The translations under genes and the position numbers were made by a program. A stretch of 50,298 nucleotides of DNA, from the sequence record NC_041873.1; one strand, written 5' to 3'. The notes under the pieces were generated by a model, which had not been told where the DNA came from, did not search any database, and worked only from the letters and a program-made list of their open reading frames with translations. Shown here one piece after another: positions 2,544-50,134 of this stretch. This DNA is from Escherichia phage JMPW2. Every line of letters begins with the position of its first letter. Positions within the stretch are counted from its first letter, which is position 1.

Positions 2544-3032
2544 ATGAAAATCAAATTGCTTTGCACTGGCGGTTACAAGGGCTTTACTCGCGACCTGGAA
2601 GCGGATCCTATCGTGATTGATGCGGTGAAGTGTGATGATAGCCTCGGCGGCTACCGCGTGAAGGTTGACGACCTGGTGAAAGCTGGCGTGTACGATCTGG
2701 GCTATGGACTTTCGGTTAGCCCGGTAGTTGGTCCGGCAGACTTCAACGAGAAGGATGGAACGATGTTCTTCTTCGAATGGGAAGTCCAGGCAAATCCTAA
2801 GCCGCGCAAGGTTCGTCTTCTCAGTAATGGCGGCTACCCGATGCGTCCAGGTTATGAGAATCGCACATTCCCGGTTATCGTTGACTTTGAAGAAATCACC
2901 GCACACTTAGCTTATATCAACGGTGAACAGCTTCATGCTGTTGGATTCGTGGGATGTATGAATCAAGAGGCGCTATGCTTCTTCCATTGTAAAGCCGAGC
3001 CGTTCGATATTGAGTGCGAGTTAGTATACTAA
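2544..3032 (+). CDS. hypothetical protein
   Basis: Track ORF; module and SD acgagga upstream. Confidence 0.6.
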   Translation: MKIKLLCTGGYKGFTRDLEADPIVIDAVKCDDSLGGYRVKVDDLVKAGVYDLGYGLSVSPVVGPADFNEKDGTMFFFEWEVQANPKPRKVRLLSNGGYPMRPGYENRTFPVIVDFEEITAHLAYINGEQLHAVGFVGCMNQEALCFFHCKAEPFDIECELVY

Positions 3033-3077
3033 GCACGAATTGTTAAAAGGGGATTTGGCCTGACTGGTATAATCCCC
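3030..3077 (+). promoter_or_regulatory. palindromic box plus stem-loop
   Basis: taagcacgaattgttaaaag; hairpin ggggatt...aatcccc with TGgTATAAT. Confidence 0.6.
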
Positions 3078-3103
3078 GCATAAACCACTAAGAGGAAAGC
3101 ATC

Positions 3104-3610
3104 ATGTTAAAATTAGAAGACGTAAAATTCCCGATTAAATTTATCAGCCTAGGTTGCGGTGAAATTACATTCACCAGTGAAGATAAAGGCAAGTGGGACA
3201 ATGATAAAATGTCTCAGCTTAAGTTGGATTGGTTTATCAATCGGCACAATGAAGTAAATCCTGAAAACTCAGCCAAGAAGGATTACCATTACATTATTAG
3301 TGGTAGTCAGGATGCGTACGAAAAGTATGATGGTTGGAAAACTGTTCGATCAATCTTCCACCCCGCAAAGCCAGAAATTAAACCGATGTTACAATGCGCT
3401 CAGATCGAGAACATTCCATTGAGCGCGACGCTAAGAGGAGTGCAGCTTGATGATAAATCCTGGCTTGAAATAACCGCCACGCCGAAAACTATTGAAGTGC
3501 ACGACGATATCGTCACTCTTCTATTGCATTACGGCAGCTTTAAGCACAAAGCGGTATCAGGTGAAATCAGCATTAAGCGCGGAACTCTTGTACGCTACGA
3601 GGTGAAATAA
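3104..3610 (+). CDS. hypothetical protein
   Basis: Track ORF; SD aagagga upstream. Confidence 0.6.
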   Translation: MLKLEDVKFPIKFISLGCGEITFTSEDKGKWDNDKMSQLKLDWFINRHNEVNPENSAKKDYHYIISGSQDAYEKYDGWKTVRSIFHPAKPEIKPMLQCAQIENIPLSATLRGVQLDDKSWLEITATPKTIEVHDDIVTLLLHYGSFKHKAVSGEISIKRGTLVRYEVK

Positions 3611-3759
3611 TGGCTGCATGGGTCTTGATTATCTTGATGAGCACCGGGCCGGATCACGTATACATGGAAAGTCGGCAATCATGCAACGAGGCCAGGGCTG
3701 TAATCGCAGAGAATAAGCCGTTCGGATATGAAGTAAAAACGATGTGCGTTAAACGATAG
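3610..3759 (+). CDS. small membrane protein (49 aa)
   Basis: Hand-translated MAAWVLIILMSTGPDHVYMESRQSCNEARAVIAENKPFGYEVKTMCVKR; TAATG overlap with upstream gene; stop TAG inside box. Confidence 0.4.
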   Translation: MAAWVLIILMSTGPDHVYMESRQSCNEARAVIAENKPFGYEVKTMCVKR

Positions 3760-3817
3760 CATGAATTGCTAAACCTTCCGCGAGGCCATTTGTTATAGTG
3801 GCCTTATTGAAGCGCGG
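3756..3817 (+). promoter_or_regulatory. palindromic box plus stem-loop
   Basis: atagcatgaattgctaaacc; hairpin aggcca...ggcct with TGtTATAGT. Confidence 0.6.
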
Positions 3818-3839
3818 CAACCAATCAGAGGAATCAGCT

Positions 3840-4048
3840 ATGGCTACACGACTCACTCAGTAGCAGATTTACGACAAGGCCTCACGCCTTCGTGAATCAC
3901 TTCGAGGTCTGACACCAAACGACCGCATTGAGATTATCGGGCACGCATTGCACGAACTCGCGTCTCAAGACGTAATCTATCATTCATGCGGAAATAAATT
4001 CTGGAACGTGACATTCGAGGTAAAGAAAGATGAGCAAAACTCATAAGT
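3840..4048 (+). pseudogene. hypothetical gene with in-frame TAG at 3861..3863 (codon 8)
   Basis: ATG 3840 preceded by box, stem-loop and CCAATCAGAGGAAT leader; after the TAG the frame stays open 61 codons with no ATG, ending 18 nt into the next gene. Confidence 0.4.
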
Positions 4049-4317
4049 TAAAAATCGCCCCTGTACATTTCATTGGTGTAATGAACGGAACCAAAACGGC
4101 AGAGTTCCGCATCAATGACCGAAACTTCCAATCTGGCGATATCCTGGAGCTATGCGAGTTCGATCGAGATGAGTTTACCGGGTGGGAAGTTCACGCCAGG
4201 GTATCCGATGTTACCGATGTGACGCCATACATCGATCGCGGGTATGACGAGCAAGAATGCGACTTCACGCAATACGTGATGTTATCAATCAAGCCTTACA
4301 GGAAGGTTAGACCATGA
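4030..4317 (+). CDS. ASCH/PUA-like (DUF3850-like) protein
   Basis: N-terminus HKLKIAPVHF...GTKTAEFRINDRNFQSGDIL resembles the ASCH-type pattern; from memory, not searched. Confidence 0.45.
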   Translation: MSKTHKLKIAPVHFIGVMNGTKTAEFRINDRNFQSGDILELCEFDRDEFTGWEVHARVSDVTDVTPYIDRGYDEQECDFTQYVMLSIKPYRKVRP

Positions 4318-4952
4318 AATTTGAATGTGTGCTTAGTAACGGATCTGGATTTAAGTACGGCAAAATCTACGAAGGCGCTCGCGTCAATTGCAACAGCTTC
4401 GTTATCACGGATGAGCGCGGTAGAAATGTTAACGTTGTCCGGCGTCACGAATACCAGGAAATTTTCCTGCCGTACGGCAATAGTTCAAAATACATCTTCC
4501 ATCGAATCGTTGATGGTGTTAAATTTAAAGACGTAATCGAAGCAATCAACCAACTTCATAATAAAGAGGTAAAATTTATGAAATTCGAATGCATCAGCGA
4601 TAACACCAAAAAATTTACTGTTGGCAAAATTTACGATGTTCCCTCTGAGCACGCTAAGCACACGGCTGTAATTACCGACGACACGGGCCGCCACCGCATT
4701 GCAACCGTAACGCACAACGGTGAAGGTCTTCGCTGGAATAGCGGCGGCACTAAGTTCGCAACGTTCGGCAAGAAGCGCAAGCGCACTTTCTGCGTCAAGG
4801 GCAATGTTGCGGCGAACAAGACCCACAACGACAAGGCGTCACAAGTTGACCGCAAGCCAGCATTGAAGTTTGAAGAGAAAGCGGATTTATCCGGCCTGGC
4901 TGTTGCGCTTGTTCTCCTGGTAGCTTCGATTTCGCTGATGTTCATCATGTAA
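4314..4952 (+). CDS. two-repeat small-beta-domain protein with C-terminal TM helix
   Basis: Internal duplication MKFECVLSNGSGFKYGKIYEG / MKFECISDNTKKFTVGKIYDV; hydrophobic C-terminus LAVALVLLVASISLMFIM. Confidence 0.6.
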   Translation: MKFECVLSNGSGFKYGKIYEGARVNCNSFVITDERGRNVNVVRRHEYQEIFLPYGNSSKYIFHRIVDGVKFKDVIEAINQLHNKEVKFMKFECISDNTKKFTVGKIYDVPSEHAKHTAVITDDTGRHRIATVTHNGEGLRWNSGGTKFATFGKKRKRTFCVKGNVAANKTHNDKASQVDRKPALKFEEKADLSGLAVALVLLVASISLMFIM

Positions 4953-5376: not shown

Positions 5377-5823
5377 ATGAAACACCTAATCTGTATTGAA
5401 GCGCCTAACGACGAGTACACTCTGCATGGCTTGGGTATGTTCAAAGGTCACTACATTACAGCTAAGATTCAAGATGACAAGCTGGATGATGGCGATCTGG
5501 AAATCACATCGAAAGAGATTAATCCGTACATCATGCAGAATCTTGGCAATAACGAATATATGGCCTACGGCTGCAATGCGGTGTATAAGCACATTAAGAT
5601 CCGCAAGCGCGTCGTGCGTGCATTCAAGAAGATTGCAATGAAGTACTGGAAGATGAGCAAGAAAGATGCCGGACGCTGGGCGCGCAACGTTGCAGATTCA
5701 TACTTCTATCGTAACGGCGAATCCTGCTACTTCCTGATCGATGAACTTATGGAAAACTACGGTGGCGACTTCAGCCAGGGTAGCTTTGATGACTGGGTCA
5801 ACTATGAGATCAGTTGCTGGTAA
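5377..5823 (+). CDS. hypothetical protein
   Basis: Internal ATG of track ORF 5335..5823 with SD acgaggaag; module upstream. Confidence 0.55.
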   Translation: MKHLICIEAPNDEYTLHGLGMFKGHYITAKIQDDKLDDGDLEITSKEINPYIMQNLGNNEYMAYGCNAVYKHIKIRKRVVRAFKKIAMKYWKMSKKDAGRWARNVADSYFYRNGESCYFLIDELMENYGGDFSQGSFDDWVNYEISCW

Positions 5824-5872
5824 TAGCACGAATTGCTAAAACTTGCTCAAGGGAATTTGTTAGAATGCCCTT
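5822..5872 (+). promoter_or_regulatory. palindromic box plus stem-loop
   Basis: aatagcacgaattgctaaaac; hairpin aaggg...ccctt with TGtTAGAAT. Confidence 0.6.
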
Positions 5873-5906
5873 CGTTGAGTTAAGCAACCAATCAGAGGAA
5901 TAAATC

Positions 5907-6437
5907 ATGGATAAAATCACAATTTGGGGCCAGACAATCAACCTGTTTCTCGGCACGCGCCGCGTGGCAATCTTTGACTTTGACGGGACACTTAGCGATG
6001 GATCTGGTCGACTTCACCTGCTGCCGACAAAGGATTTGCACTTGACTGAAAGCTGGTCTGAGTTTAACCGAGCGGCAATATTTGACGATCCTATTCAGAG
6101 CACTATTGAGGTGATGAACTCATTATTTGCTGCGGGTTATCACGTAATTATCTTAACAGGACGTAGTGATGAGGTGCGTCACGAATCAAAGTTATGGTTA
6201 AAGCGCCACGGTGCGCGATATGATTACCTGATTATGAGGCCGCATACCGACAACCGCAAAGACACGGTAATGAAAGAAGAGGCAGTGCGCGCTATCGGCA
6301 TTGATAACATTCTTGCGGCTTGGGATGACTCAGTGAATATAATAAAAAAATTCAGAGATCTAGGGATAACCACATATCAGGTTTGTGAATATGCCTGTGA
6401 TAGTCGAGAGGATTTAAATAGTCATGGTGTCGATTGA
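5907..6437 (+). CDS. HAD-family phosphatase (nucleotidase or polynucleotide 3'-phosphatase-like)
   Basis: HAD motif I FDFDGTL near N-terminus; conserved leader upstream. Confidence 0.6.
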   Translation: MDKITIWGQTINLFLGTRRVAIFDFDGTLSDGSGRLHLLPTKDLHLTESWSEFNRAAIFDDPIQSTIEVMNSLFAAGYHVIILTGRSDEVRHESKLWLKRHGARYDYLIMRPHTDNRKDTVMKEEAVRAIGIDNILAAWDDSVNIIKKFRDLGITTYQVCEYACDSREDLNSHGVD

Positions 6438-6918
6438 TAACAAATCAATGGTAAGAGAGTTATTTACTTATTCTGACGGCGTTCTGTATTGGAAGGCCAA
6501 ATCATCTAAATACAGTAGAGCTAAAATAGGAGGCGCGGCAGGAAGCAAGGATAAAGACGGATACATAATAATCAGAGTAAGAAACGAAACTAGAGGCGCT
6601 CACAGGCTTGTATGGATATACCATAATGGCAAGATACCTGATGGAATGGAGGTAGACCATATGGATGGAGACATAACAAACAATAGAATAGAAAACCTAA
6701 GATTGGTAACGAGAACCATAAATAACAGGAATCAAAAAAAGAGATCTGATAACACAACCGGAGTATCCGGTGTAACTTTCATGAAAGATAGAGGAAAGTA
6801 TAGGGCGCAAGTTAGAAACAAGAGACTCGGGCAGTTCGACACAATAGAAGAGGCCGCCAAAGCAGTAAAGGATGAGCGGGATAGATTAGGTTTATTCACA
6901 AAAAGACACGGGGTGTAA
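6424..6918 (+). CDS. HNH homing endonuclease with AP2-like domain
   Basis: Motif EVDHMDGDITNNRIENLRLVT plus TTGVSGVTFMKDRGKYRAQV; paralogous to 42263..42745 and 46320..46859. Confidence 0.8.
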   Translation: MVSIDNKSMVRELFTYSDGVLYWKAKSSKYSRAKIGGAAGSKDKDGYIIIRVRNETRGAHRLVWIYHNGKIPDGMEVDHMDGDITNNRIENLRLVTRTINNRNQKKRSDNTTGVSGVTFMKDRGKYRAQVRNKRLGQFDTIEEAAKAVKDERDRLGLFTKRHGV

Positions 6919-6920
6919 AC

Positions 6921-15194: not shown

Positions 15195-15227
15195 GGGACT
15201 ATCTTTTTTTTGGATAGTCCTTTTTTT
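15195..15227 (+). terminator. rho-independent terminator
   Basis: ggactatc / gatagtcc stem flanked by T runs. Confidence 0.6.
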
Positions 15228-15241
15228 ATGGAGAAATCATT

Positions 15242-16009
15242 ATGGCTTACGAAAATTTGTTCTTGCGCCCCGCGTGTCCGGGAAATATTTCTGATACTTC
15301 AACCTACAATATTGATGGAGCTTGTGTGGCTCAAGGTGACATTGGGTTCGGCTCAGCGGTTCAGGTTGTAGGCATCGTTGACGGTGTAAAAGTTGTGGCG
15401 GCGCTTCCTGATGGTGGAACTCCTTACGGTATCGCTTTCCGTTCCCAATATGAACACCTGAGCGGTAAAATCCTTGACGGTGAAGTGTGCAACGTCGTTT
15501 CTCACGGTCGCGTATGGACTCTTACTTCTCTTGGTGAGGCTCCCAGCTTGTTCTCAAAGTTACAGTTTGGGTCTGGTGGAGTTGTTACTGGTGGATCTGG
15601 TTCCGCAGGTTGGACATTTGCGGGTGGCTTTGTTAAGCATGAAGATGGCTACATCATTGAGGTTCAGGTGAAACAAAATGCTTTCATCGCTCCACCGCCA
15701 CCGCCCCCTGTCGTTCTTGTTGAATCTGCTACAATCGCCACTGACAAGGAAAGCCCTCAACCAAACAATGTTACGATCCAGTGTGTAGCTAATGCTCTTC
15801 CGGATAATGCAACCGATAAGACTGGTAAATGGTCAATCGACGCTACCAATATCGCCACTGTCGATCCGGACTCAGGTCTTGTAACTCCTGTTGGTGGAGA
15901 GGTAGTCGGTGATTTCAATATTACCTGGACGGCTAACGATGCCAGCAAGACGACGGCAACTATTGCTTATCGCGTAGAAGCAGTGCCAACGCCAGAGGTT
16001 GATGCATAA
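15242..16009 (+). CDS. capsid accessory/decoration-like protein (paralog B) with polyproline linker and Ig-like C-terminus
   Basis: Paralog of 14703; PPPPPPP linker then beta-rich domain. Confidence 0.5.
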   Translation: MAYENLFLRPACPGNISDTSTYNIDGACVAQGDIGFGSAVQVVGIVDGVKVVAALPDGGTPYGIAFRSQYEHLSGKILDGEVCNVVSHGRVWTLTSLGEAPSLFSKLQFGSGGVVTGGSGSAGWTFAGGFVKHEDGYIIEVQVKQNAFIAPPPPPPVVLVESATIATDKESPQPNNVTIQCVANALPDNATDKTGKWSIDATNIATVDPDSGLVTPVGGEVVGDFNITWTANDASKTTATIAYRVEAVPTPEVDA

Positions 16010-16029
16010 CATAAAAACACTTTGACGCT

Positions 16030-16046
16030 TTAACAAAAAGTGCTAT
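16030..16046 (-). promoter_or_regulatory. palindromic box upstream of major capsid gene
   Basis: ttaacaaaaagtgctat followed by hairpin with CATAAT loop. Confidence 0.5.
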
Positions 16047-16053
16047 TATTGAA

Positions 16054-16080
16054 GCCGTGAACATAATCACGGCTTTTTTA
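16054..16080 (+). terminator. rho-independent terminator / stem-loop
   Basis: gccgtga...tcacggc stem plus T6; loop contains CATAAT. Confidence 0.6.
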
Positions 16081-16100
16081 TTAACTACGGAGAAGTAATA

Positions 16101-17060
16101 ATGACTACTAAAAAATTTGATGAAGCAGATAAAAGCAATGTTGAAATGTATCTGATCCAGGCTGGCGTAAAACAGGATGCAGCCGCAACGATGGGTATCT
16201 GGACCGCTCAGGAACTACACCGCATCAAGAGTCAGTCCTATGAAGAAGACTACCCGGTCGGCTCCGCTCTACGAGTATTCCCGGTTACAACCGAACTCTC
16301 TCCGACCGACAAGACGTTTGAGTACATGACCTTTGATAAGGTTGGTACTGCTCAGATTATCGCTGACTATACCGATGACCTGCCTCTGGTTGATGCACTT
16401 GGTACTTCTGAATTTGGTAAGGTGTTCCGTTTGGGTAACGCGTATCTGATCTCAATCGACGAAATCAAAGCAGGTCAGGCAACTGGTCGCCCACTGTCAA
16501 CCCGTAAGGCGAGCGCGTGCCAGTTGGCGCATGATCAGCTTGTTAACCGCCTGGTGTTCAAAGGTTCCGCACCGCACAAGATTGTGTCCGTGTTTAACCA
16601 TCCGAACATCACTAAAATTACCTCCGGTAAGTGGATTGATGCATCTACTATGAAGCCGGAAACTGCGGAAGCTGAGCTAACTCAAGCGATCGAAACCATC
16701 GAGACGATTACTCGGGGTCAGCACCGCGCAACCAACATCCTGATCCCGCCTTCCATGCGTAAGGTTTTGGCGATTCGTATGCCTGAGACAACCATGTCTT
16801 ATCTGGACTATTTTAAGTCTCAGAACTCCGGTATCGAAATCGACTCTATCGCAGAGCTTGAGGATATTGACGGCGCAGGCACCAAAGGCGTACTGGTGTA
16901 CGAAAAGAATCCGATGAACATGTCCATCGAGATCCCGGAAGCATTTAATATGCTGCCAGCACAACCGAAAGACTTGCACTTTAAAGTGCCTTGCACTTCT
17001 AAGTGTACTGGTCTTACAATTTATCGCCCGATGACTATTGTCTTAATCACTGGCGTGTAA
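16101..17060 (+). CDS. major capsid protein
   Basis: 319 aa after scaffold-like gene; strong SD; flanked by terminators as expected for a highly expressed gene. Confidence 0.7.
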   Translation: MTTKKFDEADKSNVEMYLIQAGVKQDAAATMGIWTAQELHRIKSQSYEEDYPVGSALRVFPVTTELSPTDKTFEYMTFDKVGTAQIIADYTDDLPLVDALGTSEFGKVFRLGNAYLISIDEIKAGQATGRPLSTRKASACQLAHDQLVNRLVFKGSAPHKIVSVFNHPNITKITSGKWIDASTMKPETAEAELTQAIETIETITRGQHRATNILIPPSMRKVLAIRMPETTMSYLDYFKSQNSGIEIDSIAELEDIDGAGTKGVLVYEKNPMNMSIEIPEAFNMLPAQPKDLHFKVPCTSKCTGLTIYRPMTIVLITGV

Positions 17061-31235: not shown

Positions 31236-32350
31236 ATGTTCCAGGTGTTCACATCAAGTCAGCTTTCTAATGACGAGTATCATAGCAACGAAGGTTGGGC
31301 GGCAGAGTATGTAAGCGGTTCTAGCCTTGCAGAAATTTATCAGACTTGCCCGGCTAACTGGAGATTCAAGAAGAATGAGACAACGAAGGCGCTGGAGTTT
31401 GGTACTCAGTCGCATACCAACTTTGAGAGCCGAGATCTGTTTACTGCAACGTATGCACGTTGTCCGGCTCCGTCAGAGTTCAAGGATCTGATTACGTCAC
31501 AAGCCGCACTGGCTGCAAAATTAAAATCTTTCGGCCTGAAAGGTACATCCGGTAAGCAGTACCCGGACCTCATCAAGATGATGGTTGATTGCGGTGAAGA
31601 GCTAAACGTCCAATATCTGATCGAGTTGATTGCGGAAGCAGAGGCGCGCTCTGAAGGAAAGAAATTGGTTGACGCTGACAAATACGACGCTTGCATGAAG
31701 ATGAGAGCAATCCTTGAACAAAATCCTGATCACGAAGCGTGCATCAACAGTGAAACGGCGCAGCGTGAGATTTCAATCTTCGGTGAGATATCCGGCGTCA
31801 AGGTTAAGGTTCGACTTGACCATCTGGACTACAAAGAGAATGTTCCAGGTCGTGTCCTGACTGGTTATGATGAGAATGGAGATCCGGTATTCGAAGATGT
31901 TATTTTCCCTGAAGCACTGATGAGAATGGAGATCCGGTATTCGAAGATGTTATTTTCCCTGAAGCACTGATTATCACTGACTTCAAAACAACAATGAGCG
32001 CCAACCCGTTAGAGTTCCCGAGACTGGCATACAATCACGGGTATTATCTGAAAATGGCCTTGCAGCATGATCTGCTACGACGCGCAATCCAGGCTGGCGC
32101 TTTTGAAGGCAACTTCCCGGAATATATCCCGATCGTAGTTCGATTGCTGGCTCAGGAGAAAAAAGAGCCTTACATCGCACTTGCTTACCGTATGACTATG
32201 GAGCAAATCAGGATCGGTCGTAGCCAGTATGTTAGCGTAGTCCACACTTACAAGGCTTGCTCTGAAATGGATGTTTGGCCTGGGTACGCTGGCGACGCAA
32301 GCGAGATTGAACTTGAAACGCCATCATGGGTGCGTTACCAAAATAAGTAA
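31236..32350 (+). pseudogene. PD-(D/E)XK recombination exonuclease, frameshifted by 50-bp tandem duplication
   Basis: 31871..31920 and 31921..31970 are identical; removing one copy fuses ORFs 31236..31970 and 31994..32350 in frame and restores ...FPEALIITDFKTT... Confidence 0.6.
31871..31970 (+). repeat. perfect 50-bp direct tandem duplication (2 copies)
   Basis: tgagaatggagatccggtattcgaagatgttattttccctgaagcactga repeated exactly. Confidence 0.95.
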
Positions 32351-39258: not shown

Positions 39259-39972
39259 ATGAAAGACTTTAATGATATCGAAACTATCGACTTTGCTGAA
39301 ACTGGTTGCTCATTCACTCGCGAAGCAATAGCGTTTGGCGGTTATTATCAGGCACTAAAAACTCCAACATGCAAAGAGATTTCAGGCCGTCGATATAAGG
39401 GAACCAATACGCCGGATGTTGTTCGTGATTTATGGTCAACCCCGCGCGAGGTTATTGCGTACCTTGAGGGGCGTTATGGAAAATACGATCTCGACGCTGC
39501 GGCAAGCGAAGAAAATAAAGTTTGCGAGAAGTTTTATTCTCAGGAAACAAACTGATTAAAACGTTGGTGGGGTAAAAACAAGCATGTATGGTTAAACCCT
39601 CCTTATAGTCGACCTGATATATTCGTCAAGAAGGCGATCGAGCAAATGGAGCACAATAATCAGATTGATATTCTGTTGCCTGCCGATAATTCTACAGCGT
39701 GGTTTACTGAGGCGCGACAGCACGCGGCTGAAATCATCTGGATTGAAGCTGACTTGACTGAGGATATTGACGGCAACGAGTATGCTCGATCCGGACGACT
39801 GGCGTTTATATCCGGTGAAACCGGAAAGGCCGTAGATGGTAATAACAAAGGTTCGGTAATTTTTATCATGCGCGAACTTAAAGATGGTGAGACGCAGCAA
39901 ACTCACTATATCCCAATCACAAGCATTTGCCCTTCGGTGAAAAACAAGCGCGCAAAAGTGAGGAAAGTATGA
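39259..39972 (+). pseudogene. dam: phage Dam-type N6-adenine methyltransferase interrupted by in-frame TGA at 39553..39555
   Basis: Same frame either side of the TGA: upstream LWSTPREVIAYLEGRYGKYDLDAAAS, downstream WLNPPYS (motif IV); track ORFs 39259..39555 and 39646..39972. Confidence 0.7.
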
Positions 39973-49447: not shown

Positions 49448-50134
49448 TTAGATAGCTTTAAAAAATCCCCTGGGTGATAGAGATCGTATCAGCTTCGTTT
49501 TGGCAGACTTGCCGCCCAGCTTGTTTTGCTGTGCAGAGTACCCGTCAGGCAGGCTTACAGGTTTTCTCTCGGGCATGACAAAATCGTCAGAGGTCCACAG
49601 ACAAGTTTTCTTCGGGTAAGCATCGCGCGGCGCAATATACATCGGGAACCAGGGGTGCGCGTCATCCTCAGGAAGATAGCCGCCGTACTCCCAGGGATTG
49701 AAGGAGTGATTTGGTTTTCTCCACGCAGACGACAGGACGCTCACCGGATTCTCAATGATGTAAGTCACACCAAGCTCCTTACCAATGTTCGCAGCTATCC
49801 GAGCGGTGGCAACAGCCTTCTCCTGGAATAACGGATCACGTTCACGCTTACTGGCAAAGTGACGAGCACCACTAACAGCCAGGTCAGTGCATGGAGGGAA
49901 AGCCATAATAAAATCCGGCTTGCCATACACACCCGCGATCGCGTCACGTTCGAACTTCTCATCAATAAAGACGTTCACATACTCAATGTTCGGATGCTCC
50001 ACCCTGGCGTTGTACTTTGCATAATCTCCGTGATCGGCCCCGTCAAAGTTGAAGCACATCACCTTATGACCTTGCTTTGCCAGTTCATGACCAGCAAGAC
50101 CGGAACCGTCGAATAGTGACCAAATTAACTTCAT
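49448..50134 (-). CDS. C5-cytosine DNA methyltransferase (Dcm-like)
   Basis: Motif I LFDGSG, motif IV FPPCTDLAVSG, ENP(V)-type motif YIIENPVS; conserved leader upstream. Confidence 0.7.
   Translation of the reverse strand: MKLIWSLFDGSGLAGHELAKQGHKVMCFNFDGADHGDYAKYNARVEHPNIEYVNVFIDEKFERDAIAGVYGKPDFIMAFPPCTDLAVSGARHFASKRERDPLFQEKAVATARIAANIGKELGVTYIIENPVSVLSSAWRKPNHSFNPWEYGGYLPEDDAHPWFPMYIAPRDAYPKKTCLWTSDDFVMPERKPVSLPDGYSAQQNKLGGKSAKTKLIRSLSPRGFFKAI

Follow-up and report, generated by a model that had tools for sequence, protein, structure and literature searches.

Escherichia phage JMPW2 carries an inherited amber codon at position 8 of a conserved 68-residue early gene, very probably a tolerated null allele

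In the early region of Escherichia phage JMPW2, a T1-like Tunavirus of the Drexlerviridae, some 270 nucleotides directly upstream of a gene for a DUF3850 protein appear to be devoid of a gene, and yet they contain a well-equipped translation start that is followed after seven codons by a TAG. This raises the question whether the stretch is non-coding DNA or a gene that has been interrupted by an amber codon and, if the latter applies, whether the stop codon is real, whether it is decoded and why it persists. We addressed these questions by computational comparison. All coordinates refer to the window, by which we mean the complete sequence of 50,298 nucleotides in record NC_041873.1. The genome announcement gives the same length of 50,298 bp, reports no tRNAs and names 'contaminated experiment samples' as the source of the phage (PMC4919409).

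The reading frame that starts with ATG 3840-3842 continues with GCT ACA CGA CTC ACT CAG and then runs into TAG 3861-3863, exactly where an earlier note on this DNA, made from the sequence alone, had placed the start of the gene and its premature stop. Beyond the TAG, no further stop interrupts the frame before TAA 4044-4046, and positions 3864-4043 are open. This amounts to 60 sense codons and not to the 61 counted before, a number that is reached only when the terminator is included. The further statement that the stop of the interrupted frame overlaps the start of the next gene is correct, with an overlap of 17 nt counted from ATG 4030, and it is equally true that nothing else codes through 3760-4030, where the remaining frames and the opposite strand offer only open reading frames of at most 36 amino acids. 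As had also been noted, there is no ATG in frame after the TAG; the earliest in-frame start codon of any kind (ATG, GTG or TTG) is TTG 3948. An open run of 60 codons is by itself not beyond chance ((61/64)^60 ~0.06) and it is therefore homology that settles the coding status of the region.

When a tryptophan is restored at codon 8, the product matches the protein family phrog_18601 from end to end (residues 1-68 on positions 1-68 of the 68-position profile, E = 1.4e-50) and is 90-97% identical to 68-residue proteins encoded in related Tunavirus genomes (tblastn). The dN/dS ratios range from 0.03 to 0.16, both for the JMPW2 frame compared with its relatives and among the relatives themselves, and such values characterize the family as a protein-coding gene under purifying selection. 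A 207-nt coding sequence is annotated at the homologous coordinates in JMPW1, SH6, LeonhardEuler and others, in the same promoter/leader context and with the same overlap with the DUF3850 gene. In JMPW1 (YP_009594221.1 / FDG91_gp10), SH6 (gp13) and LeonhardEuler (bas13_0068) the locus, the length, the start context and the 17-nt overlap are those found in JMPW2. JMPW2 differs from these family members in that codon 8 is a stop codon and in that the gene appears to be unannotated (KU194205), since the name JMPW2_010 is already assigned to the DUF3850 gene; the genome announcement lists 010/011 as extra genes for JMPW2 and 010/011/012 for JMPW1 (PMC4919409).

The alignment with JMPW1, SH6 and LeonhardEuler has TGG in all three relatives where JMPW2 has TAG, a G>A change at position 3862. 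TGG at codon 8 and an intact open reading frame are present in 24 related Tunavirus isolate genomes and in four metagenome contigs, and the TAG is thus a single substitution away from the codon present in 28 related sequences. One database homolog has CGG (Arg) at this position instead of TGG, and a scan of metagenome DNA returned only two loci, both with TGG. The frame of phrog_18601, uninterrupted in these relatives, is broken at codon 8 in JMPW2, which consequently carries a pseudogene allele. The proposal of an amber-interrupted gene rather than non-coding DNA thereby holds. The earlier note had advised a comparison of the downstream peptide with homologous phages and had named a short independent open reading frame, without homology to the downstream frame, as the outcome that would speak against an interrupted gene; the opposite was found, because the entire downstream frame is homologous to the 68-residue coding sequence of the relatives.

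A profile search against 1.84 billion representatives returned only nine hits, a few of which are true small homologs. The distant homologs comprise 63-70 residues; three of four retain Trp8, and Cys50, Trp55 and Thr58 are invariant among the homologs of the family. The setting of a distant homolog is a similar early region of another phage contig of ~50 kb, where its gene is located two genes upstream of a DUF3850 gene. On the basis of the family alignment, AlphaFold models residues 7-20 and 26-44 with confidence as the two helices of a hairpin (pLDDT ~86-96 over residues 1-40), followed by a C-terminal part of low confidence. The 68-residue protein had no hit in Pfam or PADLOC, a sequence search against the PDB gave nothing meaningful (best E = 1.2), and Foldseek against viral models returned only the protein's own homolog in Sfin-4.

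The start codon of the interrupted gene is preceded by a promoter/leader module (Table 1) that recurs in the early region. Its first element, the box, is abutted by the TAG stop codon of the upstream 49-residue gene (3757-3759). With up to three mismatches, the box consensus AGCAyGAATTGyTAAA has 22 matches in the window where 1.1 are expected. In the form AGCAC-N5-TGyTAAA it is found where intergenic regions begin, on either strand, at sites that include 1450, 2471, 3032, 3758, 5305, 5825, 7492, 35139, 40213 and, on the minus strand, 47850. Such an over-represented element is probably a promoter or regulatory element of the phage's own; the annotation of T1, examined over the first 7 kb of its record, shows no promoter at the T1 copy of the box. 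A strict sigma-70 scan made no call at the -10-like hexamer (3791-3799) because TTGCTA sits 22 nt upstream of the hexamer. The leader has exact copies at 1512, 3821 and 5888, each of them followed by an ATG, and 19 matches in the window when up to three mismatches are allowed (5.0 expected). Four copies of the complete module can be aligned, and the ATG stands at a fixed distance in each.

Table 1. Features around the interrupted early gene of phage JMPW2 (window coordinates)
Feature	Position	Strand	Basis or remark
Conserved box AGCATGAATTGCTAAA, opens the recurrent early promoter module	3758..3773	+	22 window matches; T1 copy and 4 module copies align
Inverted repeat, 9 predicted pairs, 6-nt loop, around extended -10-like TGTTATAGT (3791-3799)	3782..3805	+	Fold
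Leader CCAATCAGAGGAAT including Shine-Dalgarno GAGGA (3828-3832), 7 nt before ATG	3821..3834	+	3 exact copies
Remnant open reading frame, ATG plus 6 codons (MATRLTQ), and amber TAG 3861-3863	3840..3863	+	Mutated base A3862
Remainder of the 68-residue gene, predicted to be untranslated, codons 9-68 plus TAA	3864..4046	+	Intact, homologous to phrog_18601
DUF3850/ASCH-like gene, annotated JMPW2_010	4030..4317	+	Own GAGG at 4017-4020; 17-nt overlap with interrupted gene

An inverted repeat brackets the -10-like hexamer in each copy of the early module (1475-1500, 3782-3805, 5849-5872 and 3050-3078). The arms of these repeats vary between the copies yet remain complementary; in a consensus fold of five module copies, four pairs have changed in both partners and can still form. 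Such a pattern points to a conserved hairpin, which may act as an operator or, on read-through transcripts, as a signal for processing or termination. The earlier note had described a complete module of box, stem-loop and leader upstream of ATG 3840. Box and leader are indeed repeated elements, but the stem-loop overlaps the -10-like hexamer and, if transcription starts at the -10-like module, would belong to the promoter and not to the leader RNA. The fold of the leader RNA is not significant (z = -1.4).

In order to clarify whether the stop codon occurs outside the deposited genome, independent assemblies in ENA and Logan were reached by look-up of the exact downstream DUF3850 protein. Four of them (contigs L007, L009, L010 and L011) have the same TAG as JMPW2. 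They are 99.68-99.96% identical to JMPW2 over the 2.5-4.9 kb compared, differ from it at other sites and represent other strains. In addition, there is a near-isogenic contig, L006, which differs from the TAG-bearing metagenome contigs between window positions 3552 and 4591 solely at position 3862, where it has a G and thus TGG. Because the TAG is found in independent assemblies and the near-isogenic contig has TGG, the amber codon is, to judge from the sequences compared, a derived and inherited allele of a shallow clade. That the TAG is a sequencing or assembly error in a genome obtained from Ion Torrent PGM reads with Newbler at ~1,900-fold coverage (PMC4919409) is extremely improbable: although the platform is error-prone and other lesions in the JMPW2 record look suspicious (the Dam methyltransferase gene has a private TGA, and there is a perfect 50-nt tandem duplication), the change at 3862 is a substitution and not a homopolymer indel, the coverage is high, and the identical TAG recurs in four independent assemblies, which stem from other data sets, differ from JMPW2 elsewhere and contradict such an error.

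The same contigs contain further differences from JMPW2. A further part of the contig of L007 (L047, ERZ23486496) exhibits mosaic divergence in the decoration and capsid genes; in the part corresponding to window positions 15200-17010 it is densely divergent, mostly at synonymous sites, and nearly identical on both flanks. This pattern indicates apparent recombinational mosaicism within the clade. A segment at ~6333-6920 of JMPW2 is absent from L006-L008, which have ~120 nt at this place. By collinearity, the segment is consistent with a counterpart of the T1 HNH endonuclease ST63 (T1 5465-5959) and with a mobile homing-endonuclease insertion.

Stop codons within genes can be part of the normal genetic program. 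The A1 protein of phage Qbeta is formed by programmed stop-codon read-through, and some gut phages reassign TAG with the help of phage suppressor tRNAs. In these systems, as in JMPW2, an in-frame stop codon is followed by an open frame that looks like coding sequence. The intact downstream frame and the complete start signals would be in line with a TAG that is meant as a sense codon, be it by programmed read-through or by reassignment, but this is hardly credible for JMPW2. Unlike the stops in the recoding systems, the TAG is not conserved: it is present in the shallow JMPW2 clade only, every other relative has TGG at this codon, apart from a single one with CGG, and a near-isogenic TGG allele exists. 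Neither a suppressor tRNA nor an avoidance of TAG is apparent, as no tRNA genes were found in the JMPW2 genome and TAG serves as a normal terminator that ends 6 of 77 greedily called open reading frames, including the gene immediately upstream. On these grounds recoding was rejected.

The evidence argues very strongly for the view that positions 3840-4046 constitute a conserved 68-residue early gene with a heritable amber codon in place of Trp8, a null allele that is tolerated because the gene is dispensable. In the JMPW2 lineage, a G>A transition at 3862 would have turned TGG (Trp8) into TAG. Ribosomes of a suppressor-free host would start at ATG 3840 and release a peptide of seven residues at 3861-3863, and the remaining 60 codons would then go untranslated. 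A restart downstream of the TAG was considered and judged unlikely, since the first in-frame start, TTG 3948, lacks an obvious Shine-Dalgarno sequence and would leave a product of just 32 residues. Such a product would be expected to be non-functional as Trp8 opens the first helix of the predicted hairpin. We infer that the 68-residue protein is lost in JMPW2, and the gene would then be a recent null allele, that is a young pseudogene, which is tolerated because the protein is dispensable for lytic growth. The 60 downstream codons have not decayed and contain one private change only, a synonymous one at 3992. This fits a very young pseudogene and fits continued expression equally well; low-level UAG read-through or suppression may occur in the natural host.

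Consequences for the neighboring gene are conceivable. Expression of the DUF3850 gene may be reduced, either by the loss of translational coupling or by Rho-dependent polarity. The minimum-free-energy fold pairs 3899-3909 with 4011-4021 and sequesters the downstream Shine-Dalgarno sequence, in a structure that is not significant (z = -1.45). Within the untranslated region 3840-3960, C exceeds G, a bias that could favor Rho.

The 68-residue gene is clearly dispensable, because phage T1 exists without it, because it is disrupted in phages Eco_BIFF and LHE71 and because JMPW2 infects the non-suppressor strain MG1655. In T1, the part corresponding to window positions 3825-4565 is absent altogether, which joins the promoter/leader module to the second repeat of the gene for a 212-residue protein. 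Eco_BIFF has a TGC>TGA change at codon 50 and only a 49-residue stub is annotated (L023 401-550). LHE71 combines a 1-nt deletion near codon 46 with the same TGA at codon 50 (L004 601-806). Eco_BIFF and LHE71 are not sister sequences, with 13 differences over 207 positions, and yet they share the same C>A change in the codon for the invariant Cys50. All three phages resemble JMPW2 in that the same accessory gene has been lost in viable lytic Tunavirus phages, while the lesions differ in type and position (amber codon in JMPW2, opal codon at Cys50 in Eco_BIFF, frameshift in LHE71, and in T1 a deletion that includes the DUF3850 gene). A literature search for Tunavirus phages with a premature stop codon returned none.

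Some details of these alleles deserve mention. The T1 deletion (compare L005 3603-3607) is clean and has taken out the 68-residue and DUF3850 genes together with half of the gene for the 212-residue protein, namely the first; its junction coincides with a shared CAACCAA motif. The 212-residue protein is itself internally duplicated; both repeats open with MKFEC, and T1 ST68 begins at the second of them. In LHE71, the 1-nt deletion is located four codons upstream of the TGA.

The behavior of JMPW2 on different host strains is informative. JM109 is a supE44 strain, while MG1655 and W3110 are not known to carry an amber suppressor. JMPW2 infects MG1655 and W3110 (PMC9345386), where the stocks used on MG1655 may or may not have kept the TAG, and it has also been plated on JM109, which it infects (PMC8092258). 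The plating on suppressor and non-suppressor hosts that had been suggested as a check on the interrupted gene has thus in effect been reported, and growth on MG1655/W3110 as well as on JM109 implies that the 68-residue gene is not essential. JM109 was taken as the host of JMPW2 on the basis of the record for the sister phage JMPW1, which gives E. coli JM109 as host, and of the later use of JMPW2. Classical amber mutants of coliphages, such as T4 am, lambda Sam7 or T7 am, are suppressible by supD, supE or supF. The JMPW2 allele is similar to them in that a single transition from TGG to TAG would cause truncation after a few residues and leaves the rest of the gene intact, and suppression with insertion of glutamine is expected in supE44 hosts. 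In contrast to the classical mutants, it was not selected as a conditional lethal but is a spontaneous change in an accessory gene that is not essential, hosts without a suppressor support growth of the phage, and the allele is common to a small clade that includes metagenome contigs. In kind, the W8 amber is ordinary: it is most probably a plain knockout of a dispensable accessory gene.

Further lesions are present in the JMPW2 record. The gene for a Dam-like DNA adenine methyltransferase (39259-39972) has an opal TGA at 39553-39555, where vB_Henu5_2 has TGC (Cys99), and is thereby divided into pieces of 98 and 108 residues, the first of which is labeled 'Dam methylase' in GenBank. The exact 98-residue stub occurs in no other assembly on record, and other T1-like contigs encode an intact Dam protein of 237 residues. 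In the gene for the RecE-like exonuclease VIII, a perfect 50-nt tandem duplication (31868-31967) causes a frameshift that leaves two open reading frames of 244 and 118 residues, compared to 354 residues in vB_Henu5_2; this duplication could be real or an artefact of Newbler/Ion Torrent assembly. A second DNA methylase gene (234 residues in vB_Henu5_2) is six codons shorter in JMPW2 due to a TAA at 49448-49450 on the minus strand that replaces Ala229, and this early stop is probably harmless.

Two proposals go beyond a neutral loss and concern the reason why the allele persists. According to the first, which we regard as quite unlikely, positive selection favors phages without the protein in laboratory or industrial cultures of E. 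coli K-12, for instance since the protein imposes a cost or is sensed by a host factor or defence system, and the amber codon would be one of several independent escape alleles. The gene has been disrupted independently three times (as W8* in the JMPW2 clade, as C50* in Eco_BIFF and by a frameshift plus C50 TGA in LHE71), two of these disruptions being in non-sister phages (13/207 positions different) and at a cysteine that is invariant in the family, and the gene is disrupted in three of seven K-12 phages compared to none of 20 others (Fisher p ~0.012, calculated by hand and post hoc). However, four phages isolated on K-12 (JMPW1, phi2013, Henu5_2 and LeonhardEuler) keep the gene intact, and the comparison covers few phages, which share part of their phylogeny. 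Moreover, the host of JMPW2 is itself deduced, the TAG allele is also found in metagenomes, and neither PADLOC nor Pfam nor the structural comparison offers a clue to function.

The second proposal, which we consider unlikely, is that the allele is conditional: the lineage would circulate in supE44/glnV44 cloning strains, in which the TAG is partly read as glutamine and a W8Q protein is made. JMPW1 has JM109 as its host and JMPW2 has been plated on this supE44 strain, where partial rescue in the form of a W8Q protein would presumably take place. Position 8 tolerates arginine in one homolog and alanine in another, the frame beyond the TAG is undecayed, and the origin of JMPW2 from contaminated laboratory samples (PMC4919409) is also in agreement with such a history. 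Contig L009 has a second amber codon, CAG>TAG at window position 2787, at which supE would restore glutamine exactly; it is, however, a single event among about seven other polymorphisms and with a rough chance of ~0.1 not significant. Other facts point away from a conditional allele, namely that the TGA in the Dam methyltransferase gene and the frameshifting duplication in the JMPW2 record cannot be rescued by supE and that JMPW2 grows on the suppressor-free strains MG1655 and W3110. The second amber codon of L009 (position 1758 of that contig, ERZ23486431) is located at codon 82 of a 162-residue early gene (2544-3032), which it splits into open reading frames of 81 and 63 residues.

With a tolerated null allele of a dispensable gene as the preferred explanation, the 270-nt 'gap' at 3760-4029 would be a young pseudogene and not regulatory DNA, and JMPW2 would be a natural knockout which implies that phrog_18601 is dispensable for plaque formation. 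This is of practical relevance as JMPW2 serves as a test phage in defence-system studies: the protein would be lost in sup0 hosts, whereas in supE44 hosts such as JM109 its W8Q form may be made. It is a doubtful thought that the repeated knockouts in K-12 phages may represent selected loss, e.g., escape from a host factor that senses the protein, with the amber codon perhaps additionally buffered by supE44. If this were true, the 68-residue gene would provide a handle on a phage-host interaction, and the recurrent inactivation in K-12-derived phages is, for the time being, a weak lead to the function of this small early protein.
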